Positions 1 to 10,093 of a stretch of DNA of 32,000 nt are shown here, piece by piece (positions within the stretch are counted from its first letter, which is position 1; each line of letters starts with the position of its first letter). Source of the DNA: Beijerinckiaceae bacterium (GTDB lineage Bacteria; Pseudomonadota; Alphaproteobacteria; Rhizobiales; Beijerinckiaceae); contig CANBNG010000003.1 in the NCBI GenBank assembly GCA_947370975.1, positions 1 to 32,000 on the forward strand. Reading direction: 5' to 3'. The notes beneath the pieces are model-generated. The model was not told the DNA's origin and did not search any database. It saw only the letters and a list, made by a program, of their open reading frames with translations. A program made the translations under genes and the position numbers.

Positions 1-2917
1 CCGGCCGGCCTTGCGCCGTCAGAACGTCAACTTGCCGGAGCTTCGTGACGATCTCTTCCGCCTTGTGTCTCTTCCTCGGCATTCCGCAGTCCTCCATCAG
101 GCTCAAAAGCCATACTTCAGGGAGGATCACTTTTCAGGGGGCAGACCACGGGCAGTATTGAGCAAACTTGAAGGCCGCCGCTCTGATACAGACTTCTGGA
201 CAAAGCAGACGCACCGCAGCAAGGCACTGTGGGCTGCTAGGAAGCTGCTACACAGGGAGCCTATCAAGGTGATTACGCTCGCTAGCCTCGGGCAGCGGGC
301 AGTCACTGATTGCGGATATGCCAAGAGCAAGGGCGACAAGGTGCTGCGGGCGGCTTGGGATAGAGCCTGCCCCAACCTGGACCTCTATAAAGGCAAGCTG
401 CTTGGTGACAATGGCTGTCTCCATCCGGCGGAAGACAGGATGTTCACCACGCTGGAGATAAGTGCCTTGATTGGCATTTCTCCTGATTTCAAGCTCAGAG
501 CAAATGAGACTGAGAAGGCACGGCTATTAGCGCAGGCAATACCACCGCAGATTGCTGAGATGGTAGCTGACGCAGCCATAACCGTGTTGGAAGGTAAGCT
601 AAAGAAACCCAAAGCAAGCACACCCAAACAGCTGAGCATAAGCCGCGCCACCACGCTTCTGTCATCCGATGGGGAGGTTAGGTTTTACATCTCAGAGCAG
701 GACTTAGGGGACCGTGCTGCTAGCAGCTTGATTGGTAAGCCACCCACCTCGAAGGATTATGATTATCTCTTTGATGCTGACGTCATCGACAAGGATTTTA
801 TCGTGGAGGGCCCATTTGACCCCACTATAGGACGTCGTCCCGTCATTGGTGCTGTGAAACGAAAGATATTCCGTGATGCTGCTCACACTGACGCAGTGAG
901 CTCCATCCGTGCTATTCAAGAAACGAGCGGCGCACGGCTTGCTGAATCACCATATCCTATAAGCGCCAAGACTATAGCCAATTTTGAGAAGCGTGGGGTG
1001 AAGTATCGCCTTATCAATGATGGCCGTAGCTATGAGAAATGGATTGAGCCACGCGAAGGCAAGAAGGGGCATTGGGACAGGCCACGCAGCGAGCCTATCC
1101 CATCCTCAACATATGGCTGGATACCTGACAAAAACACGAAGGTGCCGCAGTTTGCGCTAGCTGGTGTGGCAAGTGAGGAAGTCAAAGCTGGTTTCTTCGC
1201 GTTGGCTAAGCGGTGTGACACCGTCTATTACCACACGGCAACCGCTGACTATCAGAAACAAGCCAAGTTCCTCAGCTCGCGCATATTGAGAGAACATAGG
1301 CTGGGTGGCAGCGTCTTCACGACTTTGGCTGTGAATCGCTACGGGGATGATATGCCCGCTATGAACTATCATATTGATAGCGGGGACCATAACAGCGGCC
1401 TTACCACCATCGCCGTCTTCAACGAAGGCTCATATGAAGGTGGTTATTTTGTTATCCCCCAATATCGCTGCGCATTCAGGGTAGGTGATGGGGATGTGTT
1501 TGTAGCAAATTCTCGCAAGGTTCACGGCGTTCAGCAGTTGGATGGCGCTGGCCGTCGCTTGTCGGTGGTGTGCTACACCAAGACAACGCTTGCCTACAAA
1601 GAGAATACCGAGCAGGCCTATCCGCCAAAATCAGAACGTCCAAACTTCCGCTGGAACCAATACAAGCTTGCGGTGGTAGTTTCCCCTGATGGCGAGCATC
1701 CGCGCCCCATCAAGATATTCAGGTATCTGAAGCAGCAGAAGATTGCCCCCCGCCGTGTCACACTTTTCGTTCCTAATGAGCAGCTGGTGGCTGTCTATGC
1801 TGCTGCGCTAGCCGCAGACAAGCAGCCGAAGCGTGCGTTGGGTTATGGCGCTGAAATAAGCTGTGAGAATCCAGCTGACTATTTTGCGCCAAACACACCT
1901 ATCGTTTATATGCGCGATGACATCGAGGGGATATATGGACTGACCGGTTCAAGCAAAGATGCGGTTTTGTCCGTAGATGGTTTTGAGCAGCGGGTTATTC
2001 GGCGTGGGTTTGATGCTTGCCGTGAGCACAGCTCTTATCTCTGGGGTATATCCATAAAGGGAGATACGGACAATCTAGGGGACCATTTGGACAAGTCGCT
2101 GTCAGTCCGCAGCTTCCACCCCATCAGCAGTTGCGTTGGCATTATCAACCGTCCCAATCTTACGGCTAGATATCTGCCAAATGACGCGGCTACCTATGAC
2201 TTGGGGCTTGCTCACTTCCAAAAAGATGGGCGCACGGTGAGGTTTGATTATATAACGGACGCACTACCATATGTAGCTATCGCAGGTGGTAAGCCAATCA
2301 AGGGTGTGAAGGCTGCGGACATTCCACCTTATTATGTAGCGCAACCGCAAACCAAACGTACTGTGAAATCCCAGCGTAAGGTCCTTGCAATAAATGGACT
2401 TCCCGCCACTGGTAAATCAACACTTTTGAAGGCTTTCTTGAAGGCAAGTGGGAAGTGGGACAACGTCAAGCTGGGTAAGGGCTTTAAGGCACTCTATAAC
2501 AAGCAATTGGATTGCTATGTCCTTGGTGAGTATGTAGATGGCGAGGATTTTCCGGGCACCGACCGGCTGGATATGGCAGTGCAGCCTGTGGCATTGAGTT
2601 TCCTCAGCAAGGGCAACAGCAATATCATCTTTGAGGGGGACAGGCTGTTTAACTTTAGCTTCCTTGAAGCTGTTGATGAGATGGGCGTGTCGCTCCAAAT
2701 CATTGAGATGGTGGCGTCAGAGGCTGTCCTGAAGGCGCGACATAAGAAGCGTAAAGACAATCAACAGGAGCAGTTCATAAAAGCCAAGCGTACAAAGATA
2801 CGCAACATATGTGGCTCACCCACCTTCTTCAGCAGAGTTAAGACGATGGGGAACAACACGGATGAGGAGCAGGCGCAGATATTAGCGGCAATGAGGACGT
2901 ATTTGGGAATCAGCTAA
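1..2917 (+). CDS. Large multidomain DNA-modification protein with its 5' end outside the window: C5-MTase-like C-terminal motifs, TET/JBP-like 2OG-Fe(II) dioxygenase, an unassigned region of about 230 aa, and a P-loop kinase-like domain
   Basis: The ORF track gives 11..2917 (968 aa), and the frame stays open back to base 2, so the true start is upstream. Motifs read directly: LHPAEDRMFTTLEISALIGISPDF...AQAIPPQIAEMVA (aa 137-186); YHIDSGDHN...KVHGV...RRLSVVCY (aa 453-522, HxD/H/RxS); GLPATGKST Walker A (aa 796-804); IIFEGD Walker-B-like (aa 872-877). Confidence 0.8.
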   Translation, partial: RPALRRQNVNLPELRDDLFRLVSLPRHSAVLHQAQKPYFREDHFSGGRPRAVLSKLEGRRSDTDFWTKQTHRSKALWAARKLLHREPIKVITLASLGQRAVTDCGYAKSKGDKVLRAAWDRACPNLDLYKGKLLGDNGCLHPAEDRMFTTLEISALIGISPDFKLRANETEKARLLAQAIPPQIAEMVADAAITVLEGKLKKPKASTPKQLSISRATTLLSSDGEVRFYISEQDLGDRAASSLIGKPPTSKDYDYLFDADVIDKDFIVEGPFDPTIGRRPVIGAVKRKIFRDAAHTDAVSSIRAIQETSGARLAESPYPISAKTIANFEKRGVKYRLINDGRSYEKWIEPREGKKGHWDRPRSEPIPSSTYGWIPDKNTKVPQFALAGVASEEVKAGFFALAKRCDTVYYHTATADYQKQAKFLSSRILREHRLGGSVFTTLAVNRYGDDMPAMNYHIDSGDHNSGLTTIAVFNEGSYEGGYFVIPQYRCAFRVGDGDVFVANSRKVHGVQQLDGAGRRLSVVCYTKTTLAYKENTEQAYPPKSERPNFRWNQYKLAVVVSPDGEHPRPIKIFRYLKQQKIAPRRVTLFVPNEQLVAVYAAALAADKQPKRALGYGAEISCENPADYFAPNTPIVYMRDDIEGIYGLTGSSKDAVLSVDGFEQRVIRRGFDACREHSSYLWGISIKGDTDNLGDHLDKSLSVRSFHPISSCVGIINRPNLTARYLPNDAATYDLGLAHFQKDGRTVRFDYITDALPYVAIAGGKPIKGVKAADIPPYYVAQPQTKRTVKSQRKVLAINGLPATGKSTLLKAFLKASGKWDNVKLGKGFKALYNKQLDCYVLGEYVDGEDFPGTDRLDMAVQPVALSFLSKGNSNIIFEGDRLFNFSFLEAVDEMGVSLQIIEMVASEAVLKARHKKRKDNQQEQFIKAKRTKIRNICGSPTFFSRVKTMGNNTDEEQAQILAAMRTYLGIS

Positions 2918-2985: not shown

Positions 2986-3552
2986 TCAGGCTAACTCCAC
3001 TGCCGCACGTAGCTGCTCATCGTTGACGTCGATGTAGCGTTGAGTTGTTGAGATGGATGAGTGGCCAGCCAGTGTCTGCAACACACGAACGCCAATGCCC
3101 TTTGCAGCCAATGCGGTAATCATTGAACGCCTCCCGCTGTGGCTTGTCGCGTCAGCAAAGCCCGCTCCATCATATATGCGCAGCAGGAGCTGACACATCG
3201 TATTGGGTGAGAATCCCGCACCCTTTTGTGATTGGAAGAGTGCCGGGCATATGGCTCGTAGCTTTGCCTGTTTTAGATAGATGGCTAATTCCTTCTGGAG
3301 CCGCTCGTTTAGGAACACCCGCCTCGCCTTACGTCCCTTCGTTTGCAGAGGTGACAAGGTGAACTCCTCACGCACTCTACCATCTTCGCCAAGCACATTG
3401 GCTTGCGTGAGGGCAGCTATCTCTTTTGCACGTAGCCCGGCGAGGAAGCTGAACAGGACAATCGCCCTGTCCCTTGCTGCGTGTTTTCGTGTTGAGCAGT
3501 GCGCTAGCACTTGTTTAAGCTGTTTGTCTGTTAGCGTCCTTGCTTGCTTCAT
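2986..3552 (-). CDS. Short tyrosine recombinase with the catalytic domain only (188 aa, the size of FimB/FimE)
   Basis: Catalytic signature: LAGLRAKEI (Arg), HSGRRS (HxxR), LAGHSSISTTQRYI (His and the nucleophile Tyr). There is no N-terminal arm- or core-binding domain. I prefer the ATG at 3552 (MKQARTLT, AGGTG 6 nt upstream) over the ORF-track start at 3570, which has no RBS. Confidence 0.85.
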   Translation of the reverse strand: MKQARTLTDKQLKQVLAHCSTRKHAARDRAIVLFSFLAGLRAKEIAALTQANVLGEDGRVREEFTLSPLQTKGRKARRVFLNERLQKELAIYLKQAKLRAICPALFQSQKGAGFSPNTMCQLLLRIYDGAGFADATSHSGRRSMITALAAKGIGVRVLQTLAGHSSISTTQRYIDVNDEQLRAAVELA

Positions 3553-4490: not shown

Positions 4491-4799
4491 ATGAGAAACA
4501 CACAATATCTAGAGAACATATATAGGGACGTGAAGGCGCTGGGTTTGGTTGCAAATCAATACGATTTTAGCGTGTTATGCGGTAGAACACCTGCTTGGTT
4601 TAGCGCAATCAAAGCACGCGGCTTGCCGATAACGCCGGATGCGATGCTGACGTTGAGCTACAATCTGCGTTGCCGTGCTAGTGAGGTTTTGAATTTGGAA
4701 GCGAGTGATAGCGCGGTGATGTTAAGTGAGAGGCTTGTTGGGGAAGCACAGGAATTGATAGGGCAGAAAGTGACAAAGCTATCGCTATCAAAAAATTGA
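4491..4799 (+). CDS. Hypothetical protein (102 aa), divergent from the HUH-like gene
   Basis: ORF 4476..4799; the first ATG is at 4491 and the RBS is weak. I recognise no motif. The coding call rests on the open frame and island-like composition only. Confidence 0.5.
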   Translation: MRNTQYLENIYRDVKALGLVANQYDFSVLCGRTPAWFSAIKARGLPITPDAMLTLSYNLRCRASEVLNLEASDSAVMLSERLVGEAQELIGQKVTKLSLSKN

Positions 4800-4812
4800 A
4801 AGGACTTAGATT

Positions 4813-5184
4813 ATGAGATTGATGCACATTGACCCTGAACTTAGGCGAGTTGCAAATGCAGCAAGACAAGAGCTTGAAATCAAACGTCTCCGTGTACAGC
4901 TGAAACGCTGTAAGAATGGAATTCCACATAATCCAAAATGGGAAGCGCACTGGGAGGACTATATTAGCAGCGCAGTCACGCAAGTTGTTGCAGATTATCT
5001 GGCTAGGAAAAATGCAGCGCCGCAAACACAAAACAAGCGCCCTGTAGCACCTGTCTGGCAGCAGCCTGCTACCCAAGTAGCGCAGTTCCAAAACCCTGCT
5101 GCACAGCCCTATAATCGCGTTGCGCAGCAGGCCCCACAAACAGTCCAGAATCGTGCTGTTTCTAAACCTGCACCGGGCGTCTGA
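4813..5184 (+). CDS. Hypothetical protein (123 aa) with a Gln/Pro/Ala-rich C-terminal tail
   Basis: The ATG is preceded by AAGGA. It lies 13 nt after the previous stop, so it is probably co-transcribed. No motif recognised. Confidence 0.55.
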   Translation: MRLMHIDPELRRVANAARQELEIKRLRVQLKRCKNGIPHNPKWEAHWEDYISSAVTQVVADYLARKNAAPQTQNKRPVAPVWQQPATQVAQFQNPAAQPYNRVAQQAPQTVQNRAVSKPAPGV

Positions 5185-5257
5185 TATCAGCCACGATTGC
5201 GCATAGTAGCACGTGACTACACGGCGCATTGTTGTTCTATTTTCTGCTTGGGCAACC

Positions 5258-5291
5258 GAAAAGATTGGTTGATTTGTGAAAAGATTGGTTG
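5258..5291. repeat. Two 14-bp direct repeats GAAAAGATTGGTTG at a 20-bp period (iteron- or operator-like)
   Basis: Exact copies at 5258-5271 and 5278-5291. The first copy is embedded in the dyad CAACC-N9-GGTTG (5253-5271). Both lie in a 287-bp ORF-free region. Confidence 0.8.
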
Positions 5292-5471
5292 TCCAGCAGC
5301 GTGTGTGGCGCAACTATGTGTGTCTAGTCCAGTGCTAGTATGTGAAATCGTGGCAGGTTGAGCACACCGATATCAACGGTAGATTTCGTGAGCACGTGAC
5401 AGGATTTCGGTAGGAATGTGCGCACAGCGACAACAAGCTTGCTCTTGTAACGCAACACACAGGAGGCAAGC

Positions 5472-5998: not shown

Positions 5999-6080
5999 TT
6001 AACACACAGTTTTGTGCGGTGCGTAGAAGCGAAAAAACTGAATAAAAACAGGTAGTTGGAAGGCTTAAAAACAGCTTGGC

Positions 6081-6103
6081 GGTATGCTACAATGGTATGC
6101 TAC
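6081..6103. repeat. Two 10-bp direct repeats GGTATGCTAC at a 13-bp period, about 50 bp inside the island end
   Basis: Exact copies at 6081-6090 and 6094-6103, read directly from the sequence. Confidence 0.8.
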
Positions 6104-6150: not shown

Positions 6151-6195
6151 TTGGTAATGGAGAGGTCGACAGTTCAATCCTGTCTCGCAGCACCA
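6151..6195 (+). tRNA. Partial tRNA-Thr(GGU): anticodon loop to CCA only (3' half, att-type remnant, not a functional gene)
   Basis: TTGGTAA (loop, anticodon GGT), TGGAG, AGGTC, GACAG-TTCAATC-CTGTC (T arm), TCGCAGC-A-CCA. This parallels the 3' half of E. coli tRNA-Thr(GGU) as I remember it. The upstream bases (CTTTT) cannot pair with TGGAG, and no 5' acceptor strand GCTGCGA is present. Confidence 0.75.
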
Positions 6196-6317
6196 TTAAA
6201 TTCCTGACCGGCCTGATCCACCAAGCCATTGCCCCTGTGCGGCTTTTCATTTGATCCGCGCCGCTGCATAGTCTCACGCAACGCAGTCTGTCCGGGCGTA
6301 GGTGGGAGAAGCTGCAG

Positions 6318-7971: not shown

Positions 7972-8256
7972 ATGGCCGAAACCAAGACCGTCTTTCGCGT
8001 CAAACTGCGTATCGCCACTTATGCGGACGGCGCTCTGGCATGGCAGCATCTCATCGTCGATCGGCCGAGCGCGGAAGAAGCCAGCGAATTGATCAAATGG
8101 GCGCACCGTCTCGATCGCGACAATGATCTGCTGCGTCCGCATGATGAAAATTGCGCGGTCGAAAAGCGGAAGGTTCCTAACGATGGCCGCCCTGTCGTTC
8201 CGCTTGCGCAGATTTTTGCCTCCCTTGAAGACAGCTTTACGCTGCGCAAGAGCTGA
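7972..8256 (+). CDS. Hypothetical protein (94 aa)
   Basis: ATG preceded by GAGGA at 8 nt. No motif recognised. Confidence 0.55.
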   Translation: MAETKTVFRVKLRIATYADGALAWQHLIVDRPSAEEASELIKWAHRLDRDNDLLRPHDENCAVEKRKVPNDGRPVVPLAQIFASLEDSFTLRKS

Positions 8257-8896: not shown

Positions 8897-10093
8897 TCAG
8901 ATCGCCGGGCCGATGGACTGGGGCGTGTAGATCGCGCCCGTGAGCTCTTCGGGCTTGAGCGCGCGGATCGCGGGCTCGTCGAAAATATCGGCCATGTCGG
9001 ATGTCACGCCTGTCGCATCGATGGCGTCGAGCCACTTGCGATGCACGCGCGGATCCTGATCTTCATATTCAACCTGGCGTCCGCCCTGCTGGATCGACAG
9101 CGAGCCATAACCTTCCGCACTGCGCTTGCGCAGCGAGATGAAGGGATAGCGACGGCTGCCCATGGAGCAGGCCACGTAACGGGCAGGCTCGGCGCAAGTG
9201 TTGAAATGCTGATGGAACATCCAGAACGGGGGCACATACATGATGCCGTGACGCCACGGGATTTCCTTGAACTCGCTGTCGCCTTCATGCCAGAGCAGCG
9301 AATAGCCTTCGCCGCTTACCGCATGAACATGCGTTCCAGCCGCATGGCGATGGGCTTTCTTGTAGCGACCGACCGGCACCTCGGACGTATGCGAATGCAT
9401 CGTGCTGTCGGCCAGCACGAAGGACACGTTCTTCGAACCCTTGCCGCGCTCGCCGAGATCGTAAAGCTTGAAGCCCGTCAGATCGGGGACAAAATTCGTC
9501 TCCCAAAGATTGAGCTTGGCCTTGCCGTCGGCGCGCACGACTTCGAGATGTTCGCCTTCGCCCTGGAACTGGTTGGGCGAGCCGGCACGCTCGGGGAACT
9601 TGCCGGGATTGTTAAAGACGAAATCCTGATTGTGGTAGAGGTTGAGCGTGAGGGGCGCATCATTGGTGCACGACAGGCGCGCGGTCTCGCGGCCCGAAGA
9701 ATTGAAGATCTGATATTCGCAATTGAGCGGAATGGCGAAGAGCGCCTTCGGGCCCCATTCGAACGTGTGCTTCTCGCCACTCGGCAGCCAGACAGTTGTC
9801 GAGCCAAAGCCCGAAAGGACGAGGAAGAAAGCCTCGTAGAGATGCTTGACCGGACGGGTCTTCTTGCCGGGCAGAACTTCAACCACATAATTGGCCATGA
9901 AGTCGCCACGGCCATGGGCGTGGTTGAAACAGCCGCGTGCGTCATACCAATCCCAGTCCTTGGTCTCGACTGCGAGCAGATCGAAGCCGAAATCCTCGTG
10001 CACGGGAATGTTCTGACCCTTCACCCAGTCGAGATAGGGTTCAACAAGGTAGCGGCCGTCAAGCTCTTCCTGCGGCGTTGCTTTATCAGACAT
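8897..10093 (-). CDS. Bicupin protein (two cupin barrels, metal motif only in the C-terminal one), putative dioxygenase or isomerase-type enzyme
   Basis: 398 aa with AAGGAGAA RBS. The C-terminal cupin has KKAHRHAAGTHVHAVSGEGY (HxH...E) and VPPFWMFHQHFN (the second His motif). The N-terminal barrel (KHLYEAFFLVLSGFG) lacks HxH. Confidence 0.75.
   Translation of the reverse strand: MSDKATPQEELDGRYLVEPYLDWVKGQNIPVHEDFGFDLLAVETKDWDWYDARGCFNHAHGRGDFMANYVVEVLPGKKTRPVKHLYEAFFLVLSGFGSTTVWLPSGEKHTFEWGPKALFAIPLNCEYQIFNSSGRETARLSCTNDAPLTLNLYHNQDFVFNNPGKFPERAGSPNQFQGEGEHLEVVRADGKAKLNLWETNFVPDLTGFKLYDLGERGKGSKNVSFVLADSTMHSHTSEVPVGRYKKAHRHAAGTHVHAVSGEGYSLLWHEGDSEFKEIPWRHGIMYVPPFWMFHQHFNTCAEPARYVACSMGSRRYPFISLRKRSAEGYGSLSIQQGGRQVEYEDQDPRVHRKWLDAIDATGVTSDMADIFDEPAIRALKPEELTGAIYTPQSIGPAI

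Follow-up and report, generated by a model that had tools for sequence, protein, structure and literature searches.

The component chemistries of DNA pyrimidine hypermodification and most of the relevant gene associations are already known from phages (PMC8256090; PMC8989533; PMC13229309). In the phage thymidine pathway, which combines 5-HMUDK with an amino-acid:DNA transferase (AADT / aGPT-Pplase), 5-HMUDK yields 5-phosphomethyldeoxyuridine (5-PmdU), from which AADT displaces the phosphate (PMC8989533); in some metavirome contigs, TET_JBP supplies 5-hydroxymethyluracil (5hmU) (PMC8989533; PMC13229309). Links with P-loop kinases and AADTs are known for phage T-dioxygenases; a C5-methyltransferase co-occurs in only 6% of such pathways (PMC13229309). 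Lee et al. (PMC8989533) and a 2026 PNAS study argued that TET_JBP genes without a nearby C5-methyltransferase act on thymine. Phages also carry clusters of C5-methyltransferase, TET (5mYOX) and glycosyltransferase or kinase genes, and Burke et al. 2021 proposed for some phage contigs that the kinase acts on TET-made 5-hydroxymethylcytosine (5hmC) (PMC8256090). TET/JBP enzymes are overwhelmingly viral or eukaryotic, with ~1.5% of them bacterial (PMC13229309). Here, we present an analysis of the gene at the beginning of a 32,000-nt stretch of DNA (the window; GCA_947370975.1, contig CANBNG010000003.1, positions 1 to 32,000 of the forward strand) from a Beijerinckiaceae bacterium. We found that (i) the intact gene encodes one protein with, in this order, methylase-like, TET/JBP, GT-A-like (TET-associated glycosyltransferase; TAGT) and P-loop kinase domains, an order that is conserved across a small family; (ii) the methylase-like domain is a putative C5-methylation pseudo-enzyme; (iii) the island that has this gene as its main cargo is ~12 kb long and integrated in the tRNA-Thr gene of an alphaproteobacterium; and (iv) an IS3-family insertion sequence (IS), inserted at codon 216, cuts the gene in two in this genome.

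Viral metagenomes have already yielded multi-domain fusions of 5-HMUDK with other pathway enzymes, as well as TET_JBP genes beside kinase and transferase genes (PMC8989533). For this reason, the architecture counts as a fused, island-borne variant on the known phage toolkit and not as one that is new in kind. An earlier note on this DNA, made from the sequence alone, had not recognised the architecture as a described one. This holds for the exact fusion but not for related multi-domain fusions: full-text literature searches, which did not cover the likeliest source, Iyer et al. 2013 (NAR 41:7635), returned no description of a methylase-TET-TAGT-kinase fusion. Nor were descriptions found of this four- or five-module fusion as such, of the pseudo-methylase head, of a series in which a kinase replaces TAGT, or of such genes on bacterial tRNA islands accompanied by an invariable partner and a small recombinase.

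The fusion gene and its modules

The window opens with a single frame without stop codons from nt 2 to a terminator at 2915-2917, as the earlier note had it, and the residue strings quoted there were all found at the positions given, if residues are numbered starting with the TTG codon at nt 11. When 5.8 billion protein clusters were searched, 37 relatives of this open reading frame (ORF) were returned (best E = 0), and the top relative is identical across 95% of the query. Therefore, the ORF is a real gene fragment and not a chance frame. Intact alleles encoding 1137 aa are present on two metagenome contigs (L001 and L002) and one NCBI genome contig (L085). Among the proteins of intact alleles is P0194 (GCA_974711375.1, contig CDEQKY010000050.1). 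The window matches these contigs with 94-100% identity from nt 149 and not upstream of it, and the encoded fragment is 100% identical to the intact 1137-aa protein P0001 over 922 residues. Thus, the window carries a 3' gene fragment (codons 216-1137) and not part of a longer intact ORF. The one polypeptide of more than 968 aa proposed earlier is real in its domain order, but only a 922-codon fragment of a split gene is present here. The presumed missing 5' end, which had been suggested for recovery, was found on an NCBI contig of another assembly (L008, GCA_947374425.1).

Compared with the Pfam cut-offs (Tet_JBP 34.9, AAA_33 27 and DNA_methylase 22 bits), the window ORF scored 43.6 bits for Tet_JBP, 25.4 for AAA_33, 22.6 for AAA_18 and 16.1 for a C-terminal match to DNA_methylase. 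Among the PHROGs, its TET region matches an uncharacterised phage family (E = 5e-18), and the ORF also matches a kinase-type family (mislabelled small terminase) and a DNA methyltransferase family. The 33 family members, each scanned singly against Pfam, all match Tet_JBP, while 31 match DNA_methylase, 20 TAGT, nine Ploopntkinase3 and three ADDT (amino-acid:DNA transferase). Their architectures form three grades: proteins of ~960-990 aa with methylase-like, TET and intact TAGT domains; proteins of ~1080-1185 aa, including that of the window, with the same layout plus a C-terminal P-loop kinase; and proteins of ~1450 aa, in which an ADDT is fused in addition. The full-length fusion is rare. Only ~10 clusters at 50% identity emerged when 1.84 billion representative proteins were searched exhaustively with a profile, and stand-alone TAGTs of ~250 aa made up most of the remaining matches; one genome each for 185,579 species gave only two loci, both in Rhizobiales or Beijerinckiaceae metagenome-assembled genomes; and no viral contig among 2.9 million scanned with the family patterns contained a relative. 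The sole member bearing a source name is annotated 'DNA cytosine methyltransferase'. A comparison of L001 with L004, for which dS is near saturation, gave dN/dS values of 0.02-0.14 over all modules (TET core 0.02, methylase-like domain ~0.10, TAGT-like module 0.14), indicating purifying selection.

The methylase-like domain of the intact P0001 scores 33.3 bits against DNA_methylase (PF00145). Its best match in both sequence and structure is SpCmoX, a phage DNA cytosine C5-carboxymethyltransferase (PDB 8YF3; PMC12783734), with a sequence profile match of E = 1.9e-24. In an AlphaFold (AF2) model built from the family alignment (mean pLDDT 82.5), the N-terminal 365 residues superpose on 8yf3 with a target TM-score of 0.82 (E = 3.7e-20; Foldseek) and also on DNMT1 and M.HhaI; a Foldseek search with the whole-protein model had only methylases among its matches. 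A methyltransferase fold is thus present in the N-terminal part, as the earlier note had asked to be checked, and the motif IX/X pattern that it had recognised (LHPAEDR...AQAIPP) is genuine, with the C-terminal DNA_methylase match falling on it. Also kept in the domain are motif I (FSAGIG), the motif II acid (E34), motif III (D56) and the target-recognition region, and an additional invariant motif, RWFxNRKxKG, lies between motifs III and IV. In contrast, the SPPC catalytic Cys and ENV, both present in SpCmoX, are lacking in the fusion family. At motif IV, the sequence is LDLLDFTAHL, and P0001 has Leu92 (beyond the IS and outside the window) aligned where 8yf3 has the SPPC Cys; the ENV position is unconserved (VPPEL, GPADL or APQEV); and the QxRxR position reads SKSYG. 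Essentially none of the 33 members has the motif IV Cys, the ENV Glu or QxRxR, and the domain contains no invariant Cys at all; the Cys residues of P0010 and P0014 align elsewhere.

These observations bear out the suggestion that the methylase module is divergent or catalytically dead. The PCQ region was thought to lie outside the window; the catalytic half does lie beyond the IS, but the intact alleles have no PCQ there. Because the catalytic Cys, ENV and QxRxR are lost in intact alleles, a self-contained methylate-then-oxidise pathway is unsupported, and the proposal of a C5-methyltransferase, TET and transferase acting in succession within one polypeptide is likewise unsupported, since, besides the apparently dead methylase, the final transferase is absent from the protein and the window. 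As judged from the purifying selection on it, the methylase-like domain is functional, yet not as a canonical methylase, and we infer that its role is in DNA binding or site selection. Catalytically inert methyltransferase paralogues such as DNMT3L and METTL14 serve as partners or targeting subunits. As in those proteins, the methylase fold of the fusion family is conserved and the catalytic residues are lost; unlike them, the family keeps cofactor motifs I-III, its domain is fused to an oxidase and there is no pairing with an active methylase.

Among the modules, the TET/JBP domain is the best-supported candidate for an active enzyme. The earlier note had read an HxD, distal His and RxS signature of a 2-oxoglutarate (2OG)-Fe(II) dioxygenase of the TET/JBP type, and this reading stands: the Tet_JBP (PF12851) score lies above its cut-off, and H623, D625 and H674 (iron triad), R685 (2OG-binding Arg) and S687 are invariant in the 33 sequences.

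For the following region, a GT-A-like fold had been the most that could be said. The region is indeed homologous to TAGT, since it aligns with the stretch that matches Pfam TAGT (PF20691) in 20 of the 33 members (best E = 3.6e-14), but it is degenerate. Short family members retain IPSYxR, VRNF, DDD, DKEDxERS, HFxKDGR and GGLQ. In all kinase-bearing members, IPSYxR, VRNF, DKEDxERS and GGLQ are gone and DDD has become RDD (as in the window protein), TPD or KGD, so that HFxKDGR and one Asp remain; neither the window protein nor the other kinase-bearing members have a Pfam TAGT match. The secondary structure in the AF2 model, with alternating beta strands and alpha helices and an acidic pair after a strand, is compatible with GT-A. 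The module is probably a structural relic of an older glycosylating version, which the ~970-aa members would represent. P0036 (1174 aa), a family member outside the window, apparently has two tandem TAGT modules, the first or second of which is degenerate while the other is intact, and lacks a kinase.

The C-terminal module was correctly recognised as a small P-loop kinase. Walker A is present, Ploopntkinase3 (PF18751) matches nine homologues, with the aligned ones reaching 60.7 and 31.3 bits, and the motifs GLPATGKST, GTDRL and EGDRL are conserved across the 10 kinase-bearing members. The positions of the modules and their motifs, together with those of the other features of the locus, are listed in Table 1.

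Table 1. Features of the fusion locus in the window (coordinates in nt; strand and basis of each assignment as given)
Feature	Position	Strand	Basis
IS3-family element end: terminal inverted repeat, ribosome-binding site, orfA start codon at nt 82-80	1..148	-	Divergence from intact alleles; mate end on L008
Target-site duplication CGGG, 4 bp, codon 216	149..152	.	L001 4872-4875 on both IS sides
3' fragment of the 1137-aa fusion gene: codons 216-1137 + stop	149..2917	+	Identity to P0001
C5-methylase-like domain, C-terminal part: target-recognition region, motifs IX/X	149..598	+	Pfam, 8yf3 profile match, Foldseek
Motif IX, LHPAEDR	419-439	+	Motif inspection
Motif X, AQAIPP	530-547	+	Motif inspection
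TET/JBP 2OG-Fe(II) dioxygenase: conserved N-terminal extension 599-1198 + Pfam core 1199-1582	599..1582	+	Tet_JBP 43.6 bits
HxD	within 1367-1387	+	Motif
Distal His	within 1517-1531	+	Motif
RxS	within 1550-1570	+	Motif
Degenerate TAGT (GT-A-like)	1646..2263	+	Alignment to TAGT-matching members
RDD replacing DDD	1907-1930	+	Alignment
HFxKDGR, kept	2213-2233	+	Alignment
P-loop kinase, probably of the Ploopntkinase3 / 5-hydroxymethylpyrimidine DNA kinase type	2375..2914	+	AAA_33; Ploopntkinase3 in homologues
Walker A, GLPATGKST	2396-2422	+	Motif
GTDRL	2555-2575	+	Motif
IIFEGD	2624-2641	+	Motif
Short tyrosine recombinase, 188 aa, catalytic domain only	2986..3552	-	Phage_integrase 92.9 bits
Site B, TTTTTT-ACGCTAT-AAAAAA, 18 nt upstream of the recombinase start codon	3570..3588	+	Exact repeat
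Three island ORFs, 214, 211 and 135 aa	3910..5731	-	Conserved in sister islands (tblastn synteny)
attR, 45-47 bp repeat of the tRNA-Thr(GGT) 3' end, right island edge	6151..6197	+	Repeat, GC change

A candidate hypermodification pathway and its rivals

Two cultured phages carry modules of the fusion as separate genes. The closest homologue of the kinase in a cultured phage is gp114 of Caulobacter phage Cr30 (39% identity, E = 5e-34). In Cr30 (NC_025422.1, ~51.8-60.7 kb; L082 and L083), this kinase, the ADDT-like gp123, the TAGT-like gp122 and the TET-like gp129 lie within ~9 kb, the ADDT- and TAGT-like genes within ~5 kb of gp114 and the TET-like gene ~7 kb from it. In Methylophilales phage Melnitz (MZ577097.1, 4.0-8.1 kb; L084), the order is methylase, TET, a 427-aa gene and kinase, and the domains of the fusion are collinear with these genes; identity to the fusion is 43% in the TET core, making this the closest phage TET, and ~30% in the kinase. 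While Melnitz is thus an example of the phage C5-methyltransferase-TET clusters (PMC8256090) that follow the order of the fusion, the genes there are not fused, and SPPC, ENV and QxRxR, all lost from the fusion's domain, are retained in the phage methylase. The labels in Cr30 and Melnitz are misleading, the kinase being named 'terminase small subunit' and TET 'SNF2 DNA repair protein'. The DNA of both phages may carry undescribed hypermodified pyrimidines.

In the island family, an ADDT is fused at the C terminus in three proteins (P0007-9), and in the sister islands L003 and L004, the fusion gene and the recombinase gene are separated by an ADDT gene (350 aa, 68 bits; L003 4440-5489 and L004 13537-14589, both on the minus strand). 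The fusion of ADDT in sister proteins and its position as the next gene in sister islands link the family to DNA hypermodification. The ADDT gene is absent from the window, L001, L002 and L085, and in this ADDT-less window lineage, the fusion protein is 42-47 aa shorter, without an insert in the TAGT-like region.

Based on these comparisons, we favor, with somewhat better than even confidence, a model in which the intact protein is an assembly line for DNA pyrimidine hypermodification that combines targeting by the pseudo-methylase with thymine oxidation and phosphorylation. According to this model, the pseudo-methylase domain would read the sequence and clamp the DNA without methylating it. 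The TET/JBP domain would then hydroxylate a 5-methylpyrimidine in DNA, most likely thymine and less likely 5-methylcytosine (5mC) made by another enzyme, and the P-loop kinase would phosphorylate the new hydroxymethyl group in the manner of the phage 5-hydroxymethyldeoxyuridine (5-hmdU) DNA kinases. In the sister islands, the adjacent or C-terminally fused ADDT would swap the phosphate for an amine or amino acid, while in the window lineage, with the ADDT gene lost, the end product would be a phosphomethyl base. The TAGT module, as a relic of a glycosylating ancestor, would now be only structural. Thymine is favored as the substrate because it requires no methylase activity, and all members have lost methylase catalysis and kept the oxidase; because the islands examined encode no other methylase; and because the kinase-AADT pair is known thymidine machinery.

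This predicted order of oxidation, phosphorylation and substitution equals that of the phage thymidine pathway, with which the fusion family and its sister loci share Tet_JBP, the P-loop kinase and ADDT. In contrast to that pathway, the fusion family welds the dioxygenase and the kinase to a pseudo-C5-methylase and a relic TAGT, its carrier is a small tRNA-integrated bacterial island, and the window lineage is without a transferase gene.

Several points weigh against the assembly-line model. The closest phage TET, that of Melnitz, lies beside an apparently active SPPC-type C5-methylase, which points to a cytosine-pathway ancestry. The predicted target of the kinase, a hydroxymethyl group on the base, is deduced from context, and the kinase of the window protein itself falls just below the Pfam cut-off (AAA_33, 25.4 versus 27). 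The retention of motif I, II and III residues may point to another cofactor-dependent activity of the methylase-like domain. With dS close to saturation, the dN/dS values are rough. Finally, with no ADDT in the lineage and the gene disrupted by the IS, there may be no product in the source organism.

The first of these points is also part of the case for a cytosine route along the lines of the earlier note, in which 5mC would be made by the N-terminal domain in a non-canonical way or by another methylase of the cell, TET would convert it to 5hmC and the kinase would phosphorylate the 5hmC. The N-terminal domain descends from C5-cytosine methylases and has SpCmoX as its best PDB match, the cofactor-pocket motifs I-III are conserved, and in the Melnitz operon, TET directly follows the SPPC/ENV/QxRxR-intact methylase and is itself followed by the kinase; the action of a kinase on TET-made 5hmC was proposed by Burke et al. 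for some phage contigs (PMC8256090). However, essentially every member has lost the catalytic Cys, the ENV Glu and QxRxR, the domain has no invariant Cys, and no further methylase gene was seen in any island examined. The loss of methylase residues in every member, together with invariant TET ligands, argues that the pathway needs no methylation, and we consider the cytosine route rather unlikely.

A further alternative is modelled on base J of kinetoplastids, which is synthesized by the thymine hydroxylases JBP1/2 and JGT, a TAGT-family glucosyltransferase. Here, the TAGT-like module would be active, giving a glycosylated hydroxymethylpyrimidine, and the kinase would act on a sugar or nucleotide and not on the base. 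The ~970-aa members do fuse an intact TAGT to Tet_JBP, the enzyme pair of base J, all members keep HFxKDGR and one Asp of DxD, and the TAGT-like module is under purifying selection. In every kinase-bearing member, however, four TAGT motifs are lost, DDD is altered and Pfam does not detect TAGT; moreover, ADDT, which is known to use a phosphorylated base as its substrate (PMC8989533), is found together with the kinase. The window's protein also differs from the base J system in being bacterial and in having a degenerate TAGT with a kinase, a pseudo-methylase N terminus and no SNF2 or J-binding domain. Altogether, we find the base-J-like route very unlikely. An enzyme acting on RNA, nucleotides or another substrate, with an incidental island context, would fit with the fact that P-loop kinases of the AAA_33/AAA_18 type (here, weak generic Pfam matches) also act on small molecules and RNA, but it is highly improbable given that four of the five family modules (C5-DNA methylase fold, Tet_JBP, TAGT and ADDT) have so far been tied to DNA base modification and that the phage relatives are located in DNA-modification clusters.

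The insertion sequence, the island and its recombination sites

The insertion sequence was recognised from its two ends. On the minus strand, the sequence from nt 148 opens with TGGTCTGCCCCC, followed by a GGAGGA ribosome-binding site and the start of the transposase gene orfA (minus-strand nt 82-2, MPRKRHKAEEIVTKLRQVDVLTAQGRP); this 27-aa start has no Pfam match by itself. The contig L008 carries the conserved partner gene located upstream and the first 215 codons of the fusion gene, then the opposite IS end (L008 1-529), where the terminal repeat appears as a mirror image, TGGTCGGCCCCC...GTGATCC, followed by the 3' part of the transposase gene, the product of which matches the integrase core families rve (98.9 bits) and rve_3 (56.1 bits). 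Both ends share the terminal repeats TGGTC(G/T)GCCCCC...GTGATCC. The reverse complement of L008 follows L001 to position 4875 and the window follows it from 4872, giving the 4-bp duplication. TG-starting terminal inverted repeats, a duplication within the expected 3-4 bp and an rve-type DDE transposase identify the element as a member of the IS3 family. We assume that the window and L008 derive from the same or a near-identical genome, with which the matching IS ends are consistent. The GCA_947374425.1 assembly breaks at the element, which suggests that it is multi-copy in that genome. Because the insertion splits the gene, the fusion gene is most likely inactive in this genome. QNV and GRPR, which the earlier note had read as degenerate methylase motifs VI and VIII (aa 4-6 and 44-47), lie within the IS-derived read-through; as nt 1-148 are IS sequence and absent from the intact alleles, we reject this assignment.

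The earlier view of the locus as an integrative island without phage structural genes was confirmed, and the island is bounded by the tRNA-Thr repeat. GC content is 45-55% within the island and 60-66% beyond attR. Sister islands are ~10-12 kb in length and lie in or beside tRNA-Gly and tRNA-Ala genes. Constant to the islands is a trio of a divergently transcribed gene for a ~347-aa protein, the fusion gene and the gene for a ~190-aa tyrosine recombinase that consists only of the catalytic domain; a separate full-length integrase is encoded at the opposite island end. The recombinase gene adjoins the fusion gene in all subgroups (synteny of L001-L007 and L086), and the NCBIfam model 'tyrosine-type DNA invertase' (FimB/FimE-type) aligns with the recombinase over its full length (E = 4.9e-13), with a score far below the cut-off; the size of the protein fits such invertases (~190-200 aa). 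A prophage or phage origin was rejected, as the 2.9 million viral contigs scanned gave no relative and the PHROG matches of the island ORFs were confined to the recombinase and ADDT. A known defence system was likewise rejected, as the PADLOC matches of the fusion protein were limited to generic methylase models and the neighbouring proteins had none.

The partner gene is transcribed divergently from the fusion gene and lies outside the window (all on the minus strand: L001 3110-4153, L004 8882-9928, L005 8886-9944 and L007 1074-2111). Its product has no sequence match in Pfam, PHROG, PADLOC, NCBIfam or the PDB. The C-terminal half of the modelled protein (pLDDT 71) gave weak Foldseek matches to inert MT-A70 subunits (METTL14, MTA1c and IME4; E = 3e-3 to 2e-2, TM ~0.3), and 'LLTPS' is found at the DPPW position; the model thus hints at a resemblance to MT-A70 subunits. 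The three island ORFs downstream of the recombinase gene have no Pfam, PHROG, PADLOC or NCBIfam match. A 14-nt motif, GAAAAGATTGGTTG, is exactly repeated 20 nt apart at window positions 5258-5291, inside the start of the 211-aa ORF (4678-5313, minus strand), and the sister island L003 has it as two copies in inverted orientation (8114-8134 and 9266-9286). The start region of the same ORF is flanked by a 33-nt imperfect inverted repeat (5190-5222 and 5322-5354), and two tandem 23-nt near-repeats (TAAAAACAG...GCT) lie at 6043-6088, just inside attR.

The islands of the close lineage each contain three copies of a 19-nt site, T6-ACGCTAT-A6, with palindromic arms and an asymmetric core, for which the chance expectation is none (L001 1035-1053, 4652-4670 and 8293-8311; L004 7186-7204, 10426-10444 and 15325-15343). 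One copy lies in the fusion gene (site A; codons 142-148, encoding DFLRYKK, beyond the IS), one is recombinase-proximal (site B) and one lies beside the large integrase gene. Between lineages, site B differs in the orientation of its 7-bp core alone, the flanks being unchanged; sites A and B are in inverted orientation in L003 and L004 and in direct orientation in the window lineage. The sequence is not conserved in more distant islands. A metagenome scan for inverted or excised states with the 19-mer gave 70 loci, of which three were related, all of them ordinary site B copies, so that no contig in an inverted state was among them. The T6-N7-A6 sites may be recombination or operator sites and might switch the fusion gene.

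Implications for the family

We speculate, while regarding it as doubtful, that the fusion belongs to a bacterial island-borne system in which the pseudo-methylase, possibly together with the 347-aa partner, steers the TET/JBP-kinase(-transferase) to chosen sites in the host chromosome; the result would be a new epigenetic mark or a mark for self-marking or defence, the expression of which may be switched by the small recombinase via the T6-N7-A6 sites. Since the gene is broken in this genome, the value of the finding lies in the family and not in the locus. On small tRNA-integrated islands of Alphaproteobacteria, the family would place a whole oxidise-phosphorylate(-substitute) pathway in one protein, and it keeps an evolutionary series that runs from the TAGT version to the kinase version and on to the version with kinase and transferase. 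The fusion could serve as a compact tool for the site-directed installation of 5-hydroxymethyl or 5-phosphomethyl pyrimidines. Moreover, the conserved dead methylase fold fused to an oxidase provides a testable model for how a DNA oxidase gains sequence targeting.

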